Positions 11,578-47,368 are shown, numbered from the stretch's first letter. The stretch is DNA of 64,000 nt from a virus (IMGVR_UViG_3300034095_001474:96001-160000); one strand, 5' to 3'. Program-made: numbers and translations. Notes: generated by a model from the sequence alone, not told the origin.

Positions 11578-11649
11578 AATTTCTCTTTTTTTTAAATGGG
11601 TTTTTAGCCCGTTGTTTTAATAAATATAACCTTCTTTCTAAAAGTTATA

Positions 11650-11680
11650 CAAATGTACGAACTTTATTTTGATTTGTCAA
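11650..11680 (-). promoter_or_regulatory. Bacteroidota-type promoter for tRNA operon 1, followed by an ACTTTT-N12-ATATTTAT second promoter motif
   Basis: TTGACA...TACATTTG, i.e. TTG-N20-TAnnTTTG. Confidence 0.8.
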
Positions 11681-23888: not shown

Positions 23889-24077
23889 TTAATCCAAATT
23901 TTTATTAATATTTTCTTTAAGATTTTTGTTCCCTTTTGAATTTGTTGGGTCAAACGGACAATGCCTACAAATATTTCCGCAGCATGTACCTCTTTTTTTA
24001 AGATAGCGTTCAGTATAAACTATCTTTCCTTTTTCTAGGTAATAATCGATTCCTTCTTCAAAACTAAATTTATCCAT
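23889..24077 (-). CDS. DUF5522-like Cys-rich small protein
   Basis: YLKKRGTCCGNICRHCPF. Confidence 0.75.
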   Translation of the reverse strand: MDKFSFEEGIDYYLEKGKIVYTERYLKKRGTCCGNICRHCPFDPTNSKGNKNLKENINKNLD

Positions 24078-24411
24078 TTTTGTTTTTATCTAATATTTTG
24101 TAGAACCATAATTTTATATATTCTCTTTGTTCATTATATGTTTTTTCATTTAATTGGAAATTGAATACATTTTTAATTTCTTTCTCACAAACTATTTTTC
24201 CATGTTTTATCAACCCAATTGAATTTATTTCACCTACTGGAATTAAAGAATGTGAAAAATCATTAACATCACTATCACCTAGAACAGTTAAAAATAAATT
24301 ATACTTACCTTCTTTTATTTTATTAGTATCAAAATAAGTATTAACGTTATTAATTTCAGATTCTTTAATTATCGGTAGTGAAACACTTAAATATAACCAA
24401 TATATTTTCAT
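24070..24411 (-). CDS. Hypothetical protein
   Basis: Start moved to MKIYWLY because the upstream part overlaps tRNA-Ala. Confidence 0.55.
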   Translation of the reverse strand: MKIYWLYLSVSLPIIKESEINNVNTYFDTNKIKEGKYNLFLTVLGDSDVNDFSHSLIPVGEINSIGLIKHGKIVCEKEIKNVFNFQLNEKTYNEQREYIKLWFYKILDKNKNG

Positions 24412-24427
24412 TTTTAAATAGTTTTTG

Positions 24428-24500
24428 TGGAGATGATGGGACTCGAACCCACATCCTTTACCTTGCAAAGGTAACGCTCAGCCAATTGAGCTACATCCCC
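24428..24500 (-). tRNA. tRNA-Ala(TGC)
   Basis: GGGGATG start, G3-U70, TTACC-TT TGC AA-GGTAA. Confidence 0.93.
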
Positions 24501-24583
24501 ATATAGTTTGGTAACTATTCGCAAGTTTCGAACCTTTTAATAGCTTTATATCCATACCCACCAAACCACTGGGTATTTACAAT

Positions 24584-24657
24584 TGGCGGTCCATGAGGGT
24601 AACGCTCCCTCGTCTTCGCAGTGACAGTGCGAGATTCTACTTTTATACTAATGGACC
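24584..24657 (-). tRNA. tRNA-Asp(GTC), encoded CCA, atypical T loop
   Basis: TCGCA-CT GTC AC-TGCGA, G73, T loop AGCGTTA. Confidence 0.82.
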
Positions 24658-24766
24658 AGTTATCAATTTTCTTTTATTTTCAGTCAGCGGCATTGATTGG
24701 CCTTTCTGTTAATCTTTATTTTCGACCTTTAATCCAACCTTCGTTTAGGTACAAAAAAGTCAATAG

Positions 24767-24838
24767 TACTCCCAGAGAGAATCGAACTCTCATTACCAGA
24801 TTGAAAACCTGGGGTCCTAACCGTTAGACGATAGGAGC
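24767..24838 (-). tRNA. tRNA-Glu(TTC)
   Basis: CCAGG-TT TTC AA-TCTGG. Confidence 0.88.
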
Positions 24839-24909
24839 GTGTTATCTGTCTTTCCAGATTGCCATACTCATACTCTCCAATGAAACGTAACTTTCATTGC
24901 AAGCGTTTG

Positions 24910-24981
24910 TACTGCCACGGAGAATCGAACTCCGATTTTATGGATGAAAACCATAGGTCCTAACCGTTAGACGATGGCAGC
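24910..24981 (-). tRNA. tRNA-Glu(TTC)
   Basis: TATGG-TT TTC AT-CCATA. Confidence 0.88.
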
Positions 24982-24987
24982 ATTTTG

Positions 24988-25060
24988 TGGTGATGGAGGG
25001 ATTCGAACCCCCGACACTCGCATCTTCAATGCGATGCTCTACCAACTGAGCTACATCACC
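24988..25060 (-). tRNA. tRNA-Phe(GAA)
   Basis: TCGCA-TT GAA GA-TGCGA. Confidence 0.92.
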
Positions 25061-25142
25061 GTTATTGTTTTACAAATGTACAAACTCTTTTTCAATTATC
25101 CTAATTTATTTGTACTTTTTTTTTTATTTTTTTTCTATAAAC

Positions 25143-25175
25143 AAAAAAAGCTCTGATTTTTAGGTCAGAGCTTTT
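25143..25175 (-). terminator. Attenuator terminator of tRNA operon 2
   Basis: AAGCTCTGA-CCTAAAAA-TCAGAGCTT plus a U tract. Confidence 0.85.
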
Positions 25176-25198
25176 ATCAATTATGTTAAACGATTACG

Positions 25199-25291
25199 TT
25201 AACTTATGATAATAGATGACCTCCCCAAGCTTTCATCGGCCTCGGCTGCAAAGTTAAATGCAAAATCAAATATGTTAGTTAATGTTTTCAT
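25199..25291 (-). CDS. Leader peptide of tRNA operon 2 (F/D/A/E)
   Basis: MKTLTNIFDFAFNFAAEADESLGRSSIIIS; AGGTCA complementary to TGACCT of the terminator. Confidence 0.8.
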   Translation of the reverse strand: MKTLTNIFDFAFNFAAEADESLGRSSIIIS

Positions 25292-25358
25292 AGTTTTTCT
25301 TTTTATGGGTTTTAACCCGTTGTTTTAATTAAATATACCGTTGTTTCCAAAAGTTATA

Positions 25359-25389
25359 CAAATGTACGACATTTATTCCAATTTGTCAA
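25359..25389 (-). promoter_or_regulatory. Bacteroidota-type promoter for tRNA operon 2
   Basis: TTGACA...TACATTTG, then AACTTTTGGAAA...ATATTTAA. Confidence 0.8.
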
Positions 25390-25413
25390 GTTTTTTTACA
25401 ATTATTTTATTTT

Positions 25414-25755
25414 TTATAAAGAATTTAAGTCTTTTACCTCTTTATGTTTGAATTCAGCACCATCTGTTGTTTTCATAGAAGGTACATATTCATATTCACC
25501 TTGGTACTTTTGTTTTAGATATTGCATCATTGCAGAACCATAACCTTTTCTTCTAAATCCTTCTCTAACTTCTATATGACTTACAGTTAACTCACCATCA
25601 TATAAAACATATTGAACAATACCCATTACATCGCCATTGATATATAAACCCAACTCATAATTATGTTGACCATCATAAGAATCTAAATGTTCTATCTTAT
25701 ATTCAACTTTTGGTTCAATCGATTCTCTTAATATTTGTTTTATAAAATTTTTCAT
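25414..25755 (-). CDS. GNAT-family acetyltransferase with N-terminal IKQILRES
   Basis: IEVREGFRRKGYGSAMM acetyl-CoA motif. Confidence 0.75.
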   Translation of the reverse strand: MKNFIKQILRESIEPKVEYKIEHLDSYDGQHNYELGLYINGDVMGIVQYVLYDGELTVSHIEVREGFRRKGYGSAMMQYLKQKYQGEYEYVPSMKTTDGAEFKHKEVKDLNSL

Positions 25756-25760
25756 CTTTT

Positions 25761-26453
25761 TTATTTATCACCATATTTTCCAGTTATTGCCATTGCCACT
25801 TTTTTTATAAATTCCCTTCTTTGTTCTGGTGTTAACCCAGCACCACCATTTTCATAACTATTAATCATGTTAGCAATAACAATTTCTTTTTTTCTCACCA
25901 TTTGATGCTTGTAATCCAAAACATCTCTCAATCCCATAAACCAAAATCCATCTTCAAATTCTAAATCTGATATTATTTCAGCTTCATTTCTAATTTCAAC
26001 ATTAGCATAAGCACCACCAGCTCTTTTGGGGTCCCAAACAGTAAACGCTTCAATATTCATAGTTGTTAATGGTGGATTTAAGTTATAAGGTCTATATATA
26101 CCATCTTTTAAAAACTCACCCATACCAGCATTTTCCCATATTTCAGTGTTTGGTATTACTATATCTAAATCACCGACACTAGTAGGAAATTCTGGGTCTA
26201 ATTGATTCATTTCATAAACCAACTCTGGATATAAGTATAATCTAGCAGAACCAGCAATAAAATATACACCTCTTTCAGAGTTTGGTTTTATACCAAATTT
26301 ATCAAATATTACAGTTTTTGATTCATGTAAATATTGTGACAATTTAGAATTCATAACCTCATTTAATTGATTACCATCTTTTAGTATTGATTCTAATTTT
26401 GTCCACACATTGTTTTCTTTCAATGCTTCATTAAATAATTCAGATAATTTCAT
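25761..26453 (-). CDS. Possible Pol-beta-family nucleotidyltransferase
   Basis: IAGSARL...GDLDIVI. Confidence 0.5.
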   Translation of the reverse strand: MKLSELFNEALKENNVWTKLESILKDGNQLNEVMNSKLSQYLHESKTVIFDKFGIKPNSERGVYFIAGSARLYLYPELVYEMNQLDPEFPTSVGDLDIVIPNTEIWENAGMGEFLKDGIYRPYNLNPPLTTMNIEAFTVWDPKRAGGAYANVEIRNEAEIISDLEFEDGFWFMGLRDVLDYKHQMVRKKEIVIANMINSYENGGAGLTPEQRREFIKKVAMAITGKYGDK

Positions 26454-26751
26454 ATTCTTTTAATCTTTCTATTGCTTCTTTATCATATTGGTTTTCAATA
26501 GTCAATGATTTAAAAGATAAAAACATATCTTTTGGACTTGGACCTTTTAAGAATAAAAAGTTGTAAGCCGACCATTCACTAGTTAAATAGTAACCATTTT
26601 CATTTTTCATTTTATCAAGCAAACACATTGGGTGTTTATTGATGTATTTCCAATCGTAATCATTACATACTTTACTTACTTTCTTCATAAAGATTGTAAA
26701 CTCAATGTATCTAACTACTAAAACCAAAGATATAAACCAAATCGCTATCAT
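26440..26751 (-). CDS. Hypothetical protein with N-terminal TM
   Basis: ORF track; ATATTTAT upstream. Confidence 0.55.
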   Translation of the reverse strand: MIAIWFISLVLVVRYIEFTIFMKKVSKVCNDYDWKYINKHPMCLLDKMKNENGYYLTSEWSAYNFLFLKGPSPKDMFLSFKSLTIENQYDKEAIERLKEYEII

Positions 26752-26826
26752 AATATAAATATTTAATGTTTATCAAATGTAATGATAATATTTTAATTAT
26801 CCTAATTATTTATGAATTTTTATTTG

Positions 26827-26908
26827 TACAGATAGAGAGACTCGAACTCTCACGCCTTTCGGCAAACGCTTCTAAGGCGTTCGGGTCTACCAATTCCCCC
26901 ATATCTGC
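26827..26908 (-). tRNA. tRNA-Leu(TAG)
   Basis: AACGC-CT TAG AA-GCGTT, long variable arm. Confidence 0.9.
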
Positions 26909-26913
26909 ATTTA

Positions 26914-27014
26914 AGATTGAAGTAGGACTCAAACCTACACAGCAGCCTTTGTTAGACCTCTAATGCTACCACCCCAGGTTATTGAGGCATGTCTATCAAT
27001 TTCATCATTCAACC
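26914..27014 (-). tRNA. Atypical Leu-like tRNA with a very long variable arm and irregular anticodon loop
   Basis: GGTTGAA/TTCAATC, Leu-type D loop, loop AATAACC, about 33-nt extra arm. Confidence 0.45.
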
Positions 27015-27018
27015 TTTG

Positions 27019-27100
27019 TACCGAGAGAGGGAGTCGAACCCTCACGCCCTACGGGCAAGGGATTTTAAGTCCCTCGTGTCTACCATTCCACCACCTCGGC
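27019..27100 (-). tRNA. tRNA-Leu(TAA)
   Basis: AGGGA-CT TAA AA-TCCCT. Confidence 0.93.
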
Positions 27101-27175
27101 ATTTGGATAGACATATGACCGTGTGGTCTATCCCGTCACCGTGACAAATAATTGACTAGTTCATGCATTCGTCAA

Positions 27176-27397
27176 TCAATCATTCATCAACACAATTTGT
27201 GCTTCTTCGAGAGGCATGTGTGTCTGCTGTTTCCATTGGTTGTCTCTGTAGTTCTTCCAACTCTTATGGTCAGAATTTCTATTTCTGTTACAACCTCTGT
27301 GTGGTGCACAAATTGGACACCCCAATATTTCTTCTCTAACAGTCATTTTATACACTCTGCTGTTGTTCGTGTGTTTTTTCTCGTCTTTTTTTCTCAT
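27176..27397 (-). CDS. Small basic protein (CPIC...C, SWKNYR..QWK)
   Basis: ORF track. Confidence 0.55.
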   Translation of the reverse strand: MRKKDEKKHTNNSRVYKMTVREEILGCPICAPHRGCNRNRNSDHKSWKNYRDNQWKQQTHMPLEEAQIVLMND

Positions 27398-27468
27398 AAT
27401 TTAAGTGTTAAGCATGTGCTTCACCTAAATCGAGTTCCTTTTCTAGTTTTCATATTCTTCATTTTTAG

Positions 27469-27541
27469 TAGGGGTAGAGGGATTCGAACCCCCGACCTAT
27501 TGCATGTAAGGCAATTGCTGCTACCGCTGAGCTATACCCCT
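27469..27541 (-). tRNA. tRNA-Val(TAC)
   Basis: ATTGC-CT TAC AT-GCAAT. Confidence 0.92.
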
Positions 27542-27731
27542 ATTTTTCTTTATCTTTAATCATATTTGTTGCACAACACTCATATAGTTCTGCTATGTTT
27601 TTTCTTTTATCACCTGGATATGTTGTTAATCCATCTAACAAACCACTATCAATCCATTTCTGAATCATTTCTTCACGTCTGTTTTTCATACGTTCAATAT
27701 TGTCTGATATTGAGTGACCTAAGTTTTCCAT
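27540..27731 (-). CDS. Small protein resembling the N-terminal segment of a gp23-like major capsid protein
   Basis: KWIDSGLLDGL...NIAELYE. Confidence 0.5.
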   Translation of the reverse strand: MENLGHSISDNIERMKNRREEMIQKWIDSGLLDGLTTYPGDKRKNIAELYECCATNMIKDKEK

Positions 27732-27745
27732 ATTCTTAATTTTTG

Positions 27746-27818
27746 TTGGCCTGGGGAATTTCGAAATCCCGACTTCTGCCATGTAAAAGCAGCACTCTTG
27801 CCTCTGAGTTACAGTCCA
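27746..27818 (-). tRNA. tRNA-Val(TAC)
   Basis: CTGCT-TT TAC AT-GGCAG. Confidence 0.85.
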
Positions 27819-27830
27819 AGGTGATGGGGT

Positions 27831-28094
27831 TTAATTACCCCATCTTATTGTGTTATTTGCAATTGCTTTTCGAATATATCTCATTAGCGTAATTGCTTTA
27901 TATGTTCTTTCAAAGCTTGACTCACCAATATCTTCAGTATTGGTTGTATCAATTGGGAACTCATATTTATACTTATCAGTTTGAACTGTGTAATATAAGT
28001 TACCTTCTTTGTAGTATGCGAACTCTGCTGTCGTTCCTTTTACTATTTCTGTAATCGTTTGTGGTACTACCACTGTTTCGTTAACTGTATCCAT
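27831..28094 (-). CDS. Hypothetical phage protein
   Basis: ORF track. Confidence 0.6.
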   Translation of the reverse strand: MDTVNETVVVPQTITEIVKGTTAEFAYYKEGNLYYTVQTDKYKYEFPIDTTNTEDIGESSFERTYKAITLMRYIRKAIANNTIRWGN

Positions 28095-28404
28095 TTTCTT
28101 TTTTATATTTTTCGTGCATTAAATGTATTGTATGGTAAGGACTTCCACCTTTACCTTCAACTATTTCATTGAAACCGTTTTCTTTGGTTATAACAGATTC
28201 TTCAGCTTTGATAGAACCTCTGAATTTATCACCATAACTTCCAGAAACTGTTTTGGTTGCTGGGTCTATATCACCCCAAGAACTTCTAAAGTTTCTAGGT
28301 TCAATAAATTCAACAAAATACTGCTTACCAGTTTGAATATACGTAATCACTTCTCTTCCAGTTTCATCTCTGTTAACTAGGAAATTCTTTCTAACATTTG
28401 TCAT
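28081..28404 (-). CDS. Hypothetical phage protein
   Basis: ORF track. Confidence 0.6.
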   Translation of the reverse strand: MTNVRKNFLVNRDETGREVITYIQTGKQYFVEFIEPRNFRSSWGDIDPATKTVSGSYGDKFRGSIKAEESVITKENGFNEIVEGKGGSPYHTIHLMHEKYKKENGYS

Positions 28405-28584
28405 AACATTTTTTTTTACTTTCTTTTAGTCTTTAACAACTTTTTTATTATTTTTCCCCAATTGAATGAATTATCCAATTTTACTACATTTGGTCTCATG
28501 ATTTCTCTAGACCCTTTGATATTCCCCGACATCACTTTTTTTCCTTCTTCGTTTCTTTCTGTTTTCATATTTTATTTGTTTTAG

Positions 28585-28657
28585 AACACCTAGTTGGATT
28601 CGAACCAACGCATAACGGTTTTGCAAACCGCCCCCTTAACCACTTGAGCATAGGTGC
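28585..28657 (-). tRNA. tRNA-Cys(GCA)
   Basis: GCGGT-TT GCA AA-ACCGT, U73. Confidence 0.92.
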
Positions 28658-28659
28658 AT

Positions 28660-28692
28660 AAAAAAAGCCCATCTAAATTGTTAGATGGGCTT
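28660..28692 (-). terminator. Attenuator terminator of tRNA operon 3
   Basis: AGCCCATCTAA-CAAT-TTAGATGGGCT plus a U tract. Confidence 0.88.
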
Positions 28693-28721
28693 CATATTGT
28701 TTTTGTTATTTAAGTCAAACA

Positions 28722-28796
28722 CTAACAAACATAGCCCACCCCGTCTACTGCAAGTAAACATAATAAAAGGACGTGTAATGTGTTAATTGTTTTCAT
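28722..28796 (-). CDS. Leader peptide of tRNA operon 3 (L/V/C)
   Basis: MKTINTLHVLLLCLLAVDGVGYVC; GGTGGGCT complementary to AGCCCATC. Confidence 0.8.
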   Translation of the reverse strand: MKTINTLHVLLLCLLAVDGVGYVC

Positions 28797-28846
28797 AATT
28801 TTTCTTTTTGTTTCTATTAAATATACCCCTATTTCTAAAAGTTACA

Positions 28847-28877
28847 CAAATGTACGACATTTATTTCAATTTGTCAA
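28847..28877 (-). promoter_or_regulatory. Bacteroidota-type promoter for tRNA operon 3
   Basis: TTGACA...TACATTTG, then AACTTTTAGAAA...ATATTTAA. Confidence 0.8.
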
Positions 28878-28939
28878 GTCTTTTCGTATTTATTTTTATT
28901 TTTTATTGACTATATGGTAAATATTATCTATAATTGAAT

Positions 28940-29263
28940 ATGGGATATGTTTATTTATTTTTAGAGGTTGATAAAGAAGGTAATGAAGCTTATAAGATTG
29001 GTATTACTAAAAATGAGCCAATCAAACGAGTGAAACAATTGCAAACTGGTAATTCACGCAAATTGACTTACCTTAAATCTTATAAATCAGAAAACTACTT
29101 AAAAGTAGAACGTTTTTTACATAGAAAATATATGATAAAAACTGAAGCTGAAAATGAATGGAGAACTCTTACTGATGAACAAGTTATTTCATTCATTAAA
29201 GATTGTGAGGAAGCTGATGAAAATATCAACTTCCTTTTAAAAAACAATCATTTTTATAAGTGA
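28940..29263 (+). CDS. GIY-YIG/T5orf172-like nuclease
   Basis: GYVY...YKIGITK...RVKQLQTGN...ENEW. Confidence 0.8.
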   Translation: MGYVYLFLEVDKEGNEAYKIGITKNEPIKRVKQLQTGNSRKLTYLKSYKSENYLKVERFLHRKYMIKTEAENEWRTLTDEQVISFIKDCEEADENINFLLKNNHFYK

Positions 29264-30429
29264 TAGAATTCTCTTCTAATCTTAATCAACAACTTGTTAA
29301 CCAATTCTGGGTCAATACCTTTAGGTAAATCAGATTCATCAAAAATCCTATCCATCTCTTTGATTTCAGCTTCTGCTGTATCAATAAGTGAATCTAAATC
29401 AATTTCGCCTCTACGAATAGACAATAGATATTCTCTATCTGGTCGTCTTACAATGATTCCTTCACCACGTCCAATTTCTTGTGACATTCTAATAAGTCTC
29501 ATACAATGCATCATATTCTTACCATCAATTTGTTGTCCATGTTTAACCGTATCAACGTATCTTGCAGTGTTTCTATTCTCAACCCATTCCATATATTCTT
29601 TATAGTCCTTGCAGTGAGCTGTATACCCATCTTTGTTGAACATGATGTTACAGATAGGTGTTTCACCCTTTGGAATACTTGATAAACGTAATTGATTGGA
29701 TTCAGCAGCATTATCAGAACCGCCAACCTTAGCAAGAGCCTTATAACCAAATCCCATCGCTTTACCTTGTGATTTTAACTCATTCTTCATAAATTCTCTT
29801 TGTTCTTCACTAAAAAACTCACCAAAACAAGCAGCCGCAATATTATCGTAAAAAACAGCATATAAATCTTTTGCGTGTGGAACATTGGTAATACCTAAGA
29901 ATTTTTCTTCATAACCCAGACCTTCACACCATTTTTTCCATGGAACTGATTGTTCACCTTGAATAACATAACAGAAATCCAACACATCTTTACGAGTAAC
30001 TGAACCTTGTTCTATGTTTTGTTTCTTGTTAAGACCTCTAGCTTTAGATATTTGTTGTACAGCATACCCACCAAATGAGTTCTTACACCCTTTGGTGATA
30101 AAATCAGCCTTGTGGTCCAATACATATTGAAACAATGGATGTTTTGTAATGATACAATCTTCTGGTGTGTTTAATAACTCCAATACTGTCGGATTTGAGC
30201 TTCCCATTAGTTCTAAGAACCTTTTAAGTTCCCAACCAGTATAATCCTTGTTTACGTTTAATTGTTCAACGTAACCAGTCCCTAAGATGTAATCTTGTGG
30301 TAAGATATATACAAACTTCTTATCAACATCAGATGTTGGAGTTTGTGTTCCATATGCTTGTGACCCAATGATACATTCAAATAGGATAAGCCCGTTTTGT
30401 TCTAAGTATTCGTGTGTAATCTTTTCCAT
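29254..30429 (-). CDS. RlaP-like (Pol-beta) nucleotidyltransferase
   Basis: IGSQAYGT.TPTSDVD, NPTVLELL, DGKNMMHCMRL, LLSIRRG. Confidence 0.8.
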   Translation of the reverse strand: MEKITHEYLEQNGLILFECIIGSQAYGTQTPTSDVDKKFVYILPQDYILGTGYVEQLNVNKDYTGWELKRFLELMGSSNPTVLELLNTPEDCIITKHPLFQYVLDHKADFITKGCKNSFGGYAVQQISKARGLNKKQNIEQGSVTRKDVLDFCYVIQGEQSVPWKKWCEGLGYEEKFLGITNVPHAKDLYAVFYDNIAAACFGEFFSEEQREFMKNELKSQGKAMGFGYKALAKVGGSDNAAESNQLRLSSIPKGETPICNIMFNKDGYTAHCKDYKEYMEWVENRNTARYVDTVKHGQQIDGKNMMHCMRLIRMSQEIGRGEGIIVRRPDREYLLSIRRGEIDLDSLIDTAEAEIKEMDRIFDESDLPKGIDPELVNKLLIKIRREFYHL

Positions 30430-30672
30430 TTATTTTAATATTACTTTTTTACAAATATATCTAACTAATGCACCATCATGGTCATATAGTTTAAAAAATT
30501 CACCAGTTAGTTCATGCAATTCCCACTCTCGTCTTTTTATATAGCTACCTCTATCGCCTTCATCAAAGAATGATTTACATTCATCCAGCGTTTTAAAACA
30601 TTCATCATAAACTGTAGTACTACCGTTTTTATTGTTGTAATAGTTTATTGTTATTGGTATAAATAATTCCAT
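30430..30672 (-). CDS. Hypothetical protein
   Basis: ORF track. Confidence 0.5.
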   Translation of the reverse strand: MELFIPITINYYNNKNGSTTVYDECFKTLDECKSFFDEGDRGSYIKRREWELHELTGEFFKLYDHDGALVRYICKKVILK

Positions 30673-30711
30673 TTCTCTTTATTTTTAACAAAGGTAAGTA
30701 TAATATTCCAA

Positions 30712-31176
30712 TTATCCTAAATTATTCAAATATCTTTTATATAATCTACAAGTACCAGAACTATTAAATAATTTACCTTTTACTGTTTTATAACCATTTT
30801 TGTTTAAAATGTCAGCTATCTTATCGTAAGAATAACCTTTATTTCTACCATCAACAACAACAACCATAGCTTTTTTATTATTTTCATTGTCTAAAGCTTT
30901 TTGTTTAATAGCTCTATTACCCTTATCTTTAGCTTCTTGAGTCAAGTTTTCTGGTTTACCTAACTTCACACCACGAGCTTTAGCTTTTTGTAATCCCTCA
31001 ATTGTTAACCGTTTATGGTCTGGTCTATTTTTTAATCCATGAACCTTACAGTGACATTCAACACATAATGGTATTGTTTTAGTACCACCTCGAACTCTAG
31101 GTATTACATGGTGCATTTCACCATAAGGTTCACCACATTCAAAACAAATATCTGTATCAATTGTTATTATAGCCAT
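30712..31176 (-). CDS. HNH endonuclease with a recombinase-like HTH tail
   Basis: CFEC...HHVIPR..GG...LCVECH; KARGVKLG; IADILN. Confidence 0.75.
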   Translation of the reverse strand: MAIITIDTDICFECGEPYGEMHHVIPRVRGGTKTIPLCVECHCKVHGLKNRPDHKRLTIEGLQKAKARGVKLGKPENLTQEAKDKGNRAIKQKALDNENNKKAMVVVVDGRNKGYSYDKIADILNKNGYKTVKGKLFNSSGTCRLYKRYLNNLG

Positions 31177-47295: not shown

Positions 47296-47368
47296 TGCTC
47301 CCAGAGAATTACGATATCCCGACTTCCGCATTATGAGTGCGACACTCTGACCTCTGAGTTATGAGAGC
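47296..47368 (-). tRNA. tRNA(CAT), Met or Ile2
   Basis: CGCA-CT CAT AA-TGCG, atypical T loop. Confidence 0.8.

Follow-up and report, generated by a model that had tools for sequence, protein, structure and literature searches.

The short region in front of the phage tRNA-Cys gene on the minus strand is probably a ribosome-mediated, leader-peptide transcription attenuator, which would gate a tRNA operon comprising tRNA-Cys, two tRNA-Val, tRNA-Leu(UAA), tRNA-Leu(UAG) and five small ORFs. This is a reading of sequence. An initial annotation of the DNA had proposed an attenuator here, and the proposal is well supported by conservation in relatives, by covariation of the antiterminator and terminator, by ribosome footprint geometry and by three tRNA-matched paralogues elsewhere in the window (the whole stretch of 64,000 nucleotides that was analysed).

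In the mechanism we propose, transcription would begin at the promoter at 28877, and we infer that ribosomes translate the 24-codon leader behind the advancing RNA polymerase. A ribosome reaching the stop codon would cover a segment that we call region 2 (28742-28733), the 13-bp terminator would form and transcription would end 2 nt before tRNA-Cys. A ribosome slowed on codons 7-15, which include six Leu of both codon families, one Val and one Cys, would leave region 2 free. Free region 2 would pair with the 5' arm of the terminator once that arm had been made, no terminator would form and the tRNAs would be transcribed. Because the sensor codons are decoded by the very tRNAs that the operon yields, a restored supply should close the circuit again, a negative feedback.

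The window comes from a large uncultured phage, judging from its matches to freshwater metagenome contigs. It is AT-rich (~32% G+C) and has 37 tRNA-like genes and a tmRNA, which like nearly all of the other genes are encoded on the minus strand. Fifteen DNA runs from lake and freshwater metagenomes contain the stretch, and a DNA search with 28400-29300 against cultured and deposited phages gave zero matches. Directly upstream of the unit is a gene for an RlaP-like nucleotidyltransferase (29254-30429, minus strand; Pfam PF10127, an 'RNA repair pathway' family, E 2e-21), with a T5orf172/MUG113 domain gene on the opposite strand (28934-29263, plus). The RlaP-like gene stays beside the Cys/Val/Leu unit in many relatives. 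Judged by this protein, the nearest cultured phage is Tenacibaculum phage PTm1 (39% identity), which is without tRNA genes, and two huge uncultured phages with RlaP-like proteins of 48% and 46% identity have zero tRNAs within 12 kb of the gene.

Parts of the unit and their predicted folding

Read 5' to 3' on the minus strand, the unit consists of a promoter, a leader ORF, an antiterminator, a terminator and tRNA-Cys. The promoter-like block (28846-28878) has TTGACA (28877-28872), a gap of 17 nt and a second element, TACATTTG (28854-28847), which fits TAnnTTTG, the Bacteroidota −7 consensus. The same 33-nt block occurs as an identical copy at 25358-25390, giving two in the window against zero expected by chance, and promoters of this type are biased towards the minus strand, with 10 sites there and a single weak site on the plus strand. 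Between 28878 and 26790 it is the sole TAnnTTTG site with a matching upstream context.

The promoter is followed by a 49-nt 5' untranslated leader (28797-28845), A-rich before the ATG and carrying the block AACTTTTAGAAA ... TATATTTAAT; there is no Shine-Dalgarno sequence in these 49 nt before the leader ATG. The leader ORF (28722-28796) has 24 codons and a TAG stop (28724-28722) and encodes MKTINTLHVLLLCLLAVDGVGYVC, with the 6 Leu, 4 Val and 2 Cys originally counted. Its regulatory residues are concentrated in codons 7-15 (28752-28778; TTA CAC GTC CTT TTA TTA TGT TTA CTT, read as L H V L L L C L L), eight of the nine being Leu, Val or Cys. Among the 240 small ORFs (20-35 aa) in the window, this leader alone has a nine-residue stretch with at least eight of these amino acids and all three represented.

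Three helices can be drawn in the RNA. A 7-bp hairpin, P1 (28743-28759; GTTTACT with AGTAGAC), begins in the Cys codon, reaches the Asp codon and adjoins region 2 on its 5' side. Region 2 itself, GGGGTGGGCT (28733-28742), is the 5' strand of the antiterminator; it lies within codons 19-22 and ends 7 nt before the stop. It contains GGTGGGCT, and the pairing of this segment with AGCCCATC in the 5' arm of the terminator (28691-28683), as first suggested, was borne out as a 9-bp duplex including G-U pairs with an energy of −16.2 kcal/mol. A 28-nt spacer separates the leader stop from the terminator hairpin. The intrinsic terminator (28660-28693) has a 13-bp stem (28693-28681 with 28676-28664), a 4-nt loop and seven T residues (28666-28660); at −18.5 kcal/mol it is the top terminator-like site within 24000-31000. 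The initial annotation gave this stem 11 bp, which is too short, and was right that it abuts tRNA-Cys (GCA; 28584-28657), the first regulated gene, which begins 2 nt past the T-run.

With the nascent RNA folded up to the terminator loop, before the 3' arm is made, the minimum-energy structure is region 2 paired with the 5' arm. After the 3' arm has been added, the terminator is the favoured structure in the in silico fold. The outcome should thus be set by the order of synthesis together with the occupancy of region 2.

We then placed a ribosome on the leader by masking a footprint from −18 to +11 around the A site at every codon. With the A site at codons 2-15 the 9-bp antiterminator is kept; at codons 16-17 it is weaker, and from codon 18 through the stop it is lost, with 0 bp remaining when the ribosome sits on the stop codon. 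Since the antiterminator is intact up to codon 15, the sensor is assigned to codons 7-15. Four of the 12 Leu, Val and Cys codons (V17, V20, V23 and C24) are located where a stall would favour termination, and these are therefore not sensors.

P1 excludes region 2, and no clear hairpin was found that would sequester region 2 when the leader is untranslated. The predicted default without a ribosome is the antiterminator, so that the unit would stay ON except when a ribosome passes quickly through the whole leader. The logic would thus depart from the textbook attenuator and rest on kinetic coupling. P1, directly 5' of region 2, is a candidate pause or timing hairpin for RNA polymerase. An ORF in the +1 frame, starting from the ATG in TTA-TGT (28761-28681), is open in several relatives; we regard it as incidental, as neither its length nor its end is conserved and its start lies inside P1.

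Downstream of tRNA-Cys, and likewise on the minus strand, are tRNA-Val genes at 27818-27745 and 27541-27468, tRNA-Leu(TAA) at 27100-27018 and tRNA-Leu(TAG) at 26908-26826, the last tRNA of the operon. The order Cys-Val-Val-Leu-Leu-Leu had been expected; the Cys gene and both Val genes are present, and the Leu genes number two, TAA and TAG, by ARAGORN and Rfam. A third tRNA-Leu was found neither by ARAGORN, with or without introns, nor by Rfam at E values up to 1. Five small ORFs lie among the tRNAs, at 28568-28416, 28404-28081, 28094-27831, 27782-27540 and 27397-27176 (minus strand; 50, 107, 87, ~80 and 73 aa). All five are conserved at the protein level at the matching place in relatives (47-76% identity for the 107-aa ORF). 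No Pfam or other named family fits any of them. One falls into a PHROG of unknown function, and their atlas scores do not exceed 0.76. No further phage-type promoter was found from 28878 down to ~26790, and the promoter at 28846-28878 therefore seems to serve the whole of this ~2 kb, with its five tRNAs and five ORFs. The small ORFs between 26826 and 28568 would then share the regulation of the tRNAs.

RNA libraries provide a weak hint of expression. A 195-nt contig from a freshwater metatranscriptome is identical to 28547-28741 and extends across the terminator and the T-run over all of tRNA-Cys. It is compatible with read-through transcripts; DNA carry-over is possible, and contigs show no transcript ends. 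The same run holds one other exact piece of the 2.1-kb region, 60 nt at 27100-27159, just upstream of tRNA-Leu(TAA). Matches in other RNA-library runs were confined to cross-matches with the tRNAs of other organisms and pieces of related strains, and a lack of coverage in these libraries is uninformative.

Conservation in relatives and in paralogous units

Relatives were sought in IMG/VR and in JGI and other metagenome contigs with the RlaP-like gene as a handle, which gave 92 loci. Among these are 22 distinct units of the Leu/Val/Cys type, from lake and freshwater contigs, and all 22 have a leader rich in these three amino acids, with an invariant ATG and an open frame of 24-28 codons whose changes in length are in frame. 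The orthologous leaders begin M-K/R/N/I and have a core such as LLLCLL-VV; every one contains TTA together with CTT or CTA Leu codons, Val codons and TGT. Across the relatives, 50-63 nt separate the stop codon from the T-run, and the gap from T-run to tRNA-Cys is 2-15 nt in all of them. Val and Leu tRNAs follow tRNA-Cys in every relative contig that continues far enough.

The three helices were scored for covariation on an alignment of the 22 sequences. In the antiterminator 84% of cells are paired and seven of the nine pairs have changed on both sides; for the terminator the figures are 87% and 10 of 13. P1 has 95-97% of its cells paired, with three of seven pairs changed on both sides, for example from U-A to C-G and from A-U to G-C. 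In controls in which the helices were slid, 31-50% of cells are paired and changes on both sides are lower in every control. When region 2 and the terminator 5' arm were swapped between relatives, the mean energy was −9.6 kcal/mol, against −12.7 kcal/mol for cognate partners, a mean that not one of 10,000 permutations attained. Because P1 covaries, the conservation of the residues 'LCLL..V(D/N)' is partly an RNA constraint. The invariant Cys codon also forms part of P1, which leaves two possible causes for its conservation.

One more distant relative (locus L058, 3333-3758) has a terminator 2 nt before tRNA-Cys, behind an ordinary 90-aa hydrophobic ORF and with no leader; downstream of its tRNA-Cys are tRNAs for Pro, Gln, Tyr, Thr and Gly. 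We considered whether this was a divergent leader and rejected the idea, as the ORF there is the end of the ordinary 90-aa gene. A terminator beside tRNA-Cys can thus exist without an attenuator switch.

Codon choice in the leaders differs from that of the phage's genes. GTT makes up 54% of the Val codons in phage genes compared with 7 of 109 in leaders (from the window and loci L001-L059), while GTC, the rarest Val codon in phage genes (3%), makes up 24% of leader Val codons. Compared with the genes of the window, leaders favour TTA, CTA/CTT and GTA/GTG/GTC and under-use TTG. This bias is partly forced by P1 and region 2 and is only a partial match at the codon level, and it is not independent evidence for the sensor.

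The window contains three paralogous units, at 11680, 25389 and 49098 (units 1, 2 and 4, the Cys/Val/Leu unit being the third), which share the promoter, the block in the 5' untranslated leader and a peptide beginning M-K/R-T. The leader peptides are enriched in P, Q, Y, T, G and K, in F, E, D and A, and in H, W, S, I, M, N and R, respectively, in each case exactly the set of tRNAs downstream, a match that counts three tRNAs missed by ARAGORN and read from Rfam alignments. These are tRNA-Asp GTC (24587-24657), tRNA-Ile GAT (48000-48080, minus strand), which apparently has no D arm and a long variable region, and a CAT-anticodon tRNA (47296-47368, minus strand), which with tRNA-Ile GAT completes the Ile/Met part of the fourth set. 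Together with C, V and L, the three sets comprise all 20 amino acids, once each and without overlap. When the best nine-residue stretch of each of the four leaders is scored, the value is 8-9 against the unit's own set and 1-7 against the other sets; for any one set, no more than a single further ORF among the 240 small ones attains the own-set score. In all four units the antiterminator lies inside the ORF and the stop-to-T-run distance is 50-58 nt. The pairing of leader and tRNAs also holds in relatives, where every F/D/A/E leader is followed by tRNAs for Phe, Glu, Asp and Ala, and every L/V/C leader by tRNAs for Cys, Val and Leu.

The block AACTTTTAGAAA ... TATATTTAAT is common to the 5' untranslated leaders of all four units, on the minus strand at 28797-28845, 25292-25357, 11578-11650 and 49018-49065. 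It could be an element for translation initiation or for binding a factor. Units 1 and 2 have an additional small GGG/CCC hairpin ahead of the ATG.

The helices P1, antiterminator and terminator could be a real RNA switch that is set by a protein, or by direct binding of tRNA as in a T-box, rather than by a ribosome; they are the best-supported parts of the unit, leader translation being something we infer, and the shared block offers a place for a factor to bind. We consider this unlikely. No T-box or other riboswitch family is present in the window at Rfam gathering scores, and near the unit there are only chance-level matches below threshold. The ATG is invariant, the frame stays open in 22 relatives and the distance from stop to terminator is fixed, and the agreement between leader amino acids and tRNA sets in four units makes sense only if the codons are read.

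The end of the leader peptide helps to separate the attenuator from a second alternative, in which the product of the ORF is a true membrane peptide, small and hydrophobic, whose transcript stops at the hairpin, and leaky, unregulated read-through yields the tRNAs. The peptide is hydrophobic, its LLLCLL-VV core is conserved in relatives, a composition of Leu, Val and Cys would by itself also fit, and terminated transcripts would serve as small mRNAs for it. However, relatives have four types of terminator stem, CCCATC, CCCGAAG, GTCCGA and CCTGGTTCG, and each is mirrored in the last codons of its leader: CCCATC occurs with the ending VGY, CCCGAAG with FG and GTCCGA with SD, complementarity being restored each time. 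As the endings track the terminator arm, the C-terminal third of the peptide is dictated by the RNA and not the reverse, which argues against a function of the peptide there. The uninterrupted hydrophobic run, V9-V17, has nine residues, too few for a membrane span, and relatives tolerate N, S, Q, P and H within the core. The paralogous leaders, with their common start and wiring, are polar or acidic and each is matched to its own tRNAs. A membrane peptide would also give the conserved, covarying antiterminator no role, and we regard this explanation as very unlikely.

The TAG stop codon and the amber suppressor

The initial annotation noted that this leader is the only one to end in TAG, which is true among the four paralogous leaders, and suggested that the phage's amber suppressor might extend it and so alter termination. 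The elements of this idea all exist. A tRNA with the anticodon CTA, which would read amber codons, lies at 55024-55095, and the stop is followed in frame by TGT TTG ACT TAA (28721-28710). If the suppressor were active, Cys, Leu and Thr would be added before the TAA, and the TAG would become a second input, as the ribosome would terminate 12 nt further on and the frequency of transcription termination would change. In a steric-free fold, a ribosome at this downstream TAA (codon 29) leaves region 2 uncovered.

An ORF just downstream of the amber-reading tRNA (54630-54974, minus strand) has an in-frame TAG at codon 4, and no other among the long genes of the window needs TAG read-through. Suppression is thus probably used somewhere in the phage. 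Reading TAG as sense hardly lengthens any phage gene, from which it follows that TAG is not globally recoded.

The pattern of stop codons in relatives does not support a role for TAG in the switch. The 24 distinct orthologous leaders end in TAA (16), TGA (5) or TAG (3), and the share of TAG, 3 of 24, resembles that in the phage's ordinary genes, where the 81 ORFs of at least 80 aa in the window end in TAA (63), TGA (11) or TAG (7). One TAG among four leaders has a probability of ~30% by chance. Programmed read-through is recognised by a recoded stop that is conserved among relatives, and here TAG stands in only those three of 24. Four relatives have tandem stops, TAG-TGA in L048 and TGA-TAG in L028, L032 and L045, which suggests selection for a fixed stopping place for the ribosome. 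The closest orthologue with a TAA stop, L014, carries the identical TGTTTGA spacer behind it, so that TGT TTG ACT TAA is a spacer and not a conserved coding extension.

The geometry points the same way. A ribosome that terminates in unit 1 or 4 normally stands between region 2 and the terminator arm, and since read-through in the Cys/Val/Leu unit would copy this normal arrangement, no switch is expected from it. The leading edge of a read-through ribosome would moreover still be ~6-8 nt short of the terminator arm. Given the unconserved TAG, the tandem stops and the geometry of units 1 and 4, a second input through the TAG is highly improbable.

Relation to known attenuators and to phage tRNA supply

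Leader-peptide attenuators that sense one or several amino acids control the ilvGMEDA, ilvBN, leu, thr, his, trp and pheA operons of enterobacteria. The phage unit resembles these in its short leader with regulatory codons, its mutually exclusive antiterminator and intrinsic terminator and its use of ribosome position to decide between them, and it resembles ilv and thr in sensing more than one amino acid. It differs in what it controls: tRNA genes rather than biosynthetic enzymes, with a product that would act directly on the sensor codons. In the trp and his attenuators a lack of translation gives termination. The phage unit, unlike these, is without a clear 1:2 hairpin to mask region 2, and when the leader is untranslated it is predicted to read through by default, not to super-attenuate. 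The unit shows no sequence relation to these attenuators and belongs to no curated RNA family. The curated Rfam leader families (Leu, Thr, Phe, His and Trp) fell below their thresholds (Phe_leader at 23.7 bits against 55 and Thr_leader at 20.9 against 55, E ~0.6-0.8), and these sub-threshold matches over the terminator, with one to Qrr, are at chance level and were not used.

Control of the translation apparatus by the supply of charged tRNA is known from the E. coli pheST attenuator, with its pheM leader, and from the T-box riboswitches of Firmicutes, both of which act on aminoacyl-tRNA synthetases; T-boxes bind tRNA directly and need no translation. The phage unit is similar in placing the translation apparatus under control and dissimilar in having tRNA genes as its targets. 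No T-box was matched in the window at the gathering threshold, nor near the unit at E values up to 1. An attenuator-like leader of E. coli tRNA-Phe genes was considered as a parallel and dropped, as upstream of pheV in MG1655 there is no Phe-rich ORF or terminator.

The mechanism of pheL attenuation has been summarised (PMC3082878), and ribosomes there pass the pheL stop codon by +1 frameshifting, an event judged to be apparently incidental (PMC3082878). This bears on the same question of movement beyond the stop that the TAG raises; in the phage, read-through would need a suppressor tRNA, and most relatives have another stop codon in place of the TAG.

Phage tRNA clusters have been described as a supply or counter-defence against host immunity that cleaves tRNAs, as with AriB of the PARIS system (PMC12409363) and Cas12a3 (PMC12851939). 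In these studies phage tRNAs replace or supplement those of the host; it is the tRNAs that are described and not a control of transcription that senses demand. Full-text literature searches found no paper on leader-peptide control of tRNA genes, phage or cellular.

Immunity of this kind is a plausible trigger for the unit. A failure of decoding could stem from cleavage of tRNAs by a host immune nuclease or from a difference in codon usage between phage and host. Much more tentatively than for the attenuator itself, we suggest that the unit and its three paralogues may together form a sensor of decoding capacity for all 20 amino acids, in which decoding would be monitored separately for each codon family and only the block of tRNAs in short supply would be transcribed, giving a demand-driven counter-defence circuit with feedback from its own tRNAs, more than a housekeeping attenuator.

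Leader-peptide attenuation is textbook knowledge for amino-acid biosynthesis, and we found no published case for tRNA genes or for a virus that gauges the decoding capacity of its host. What we propose is an established mechanism whose targets here, tRNA genes, are of a new class. The VGY, FG and SD endings that follow the terminator arm show an RNA switch dictating part of a peptide's sequence. If the proposed control is true, the unit would be a modular, naturally occurring sensor that reports how available particular tRNAs are. It would also open to testing the question of whether phages carry tRNAs because of codon bias or as replacements for those destroyed by host defences, and would mean that large phages supply tRNAs on demand rather than simply carry them.
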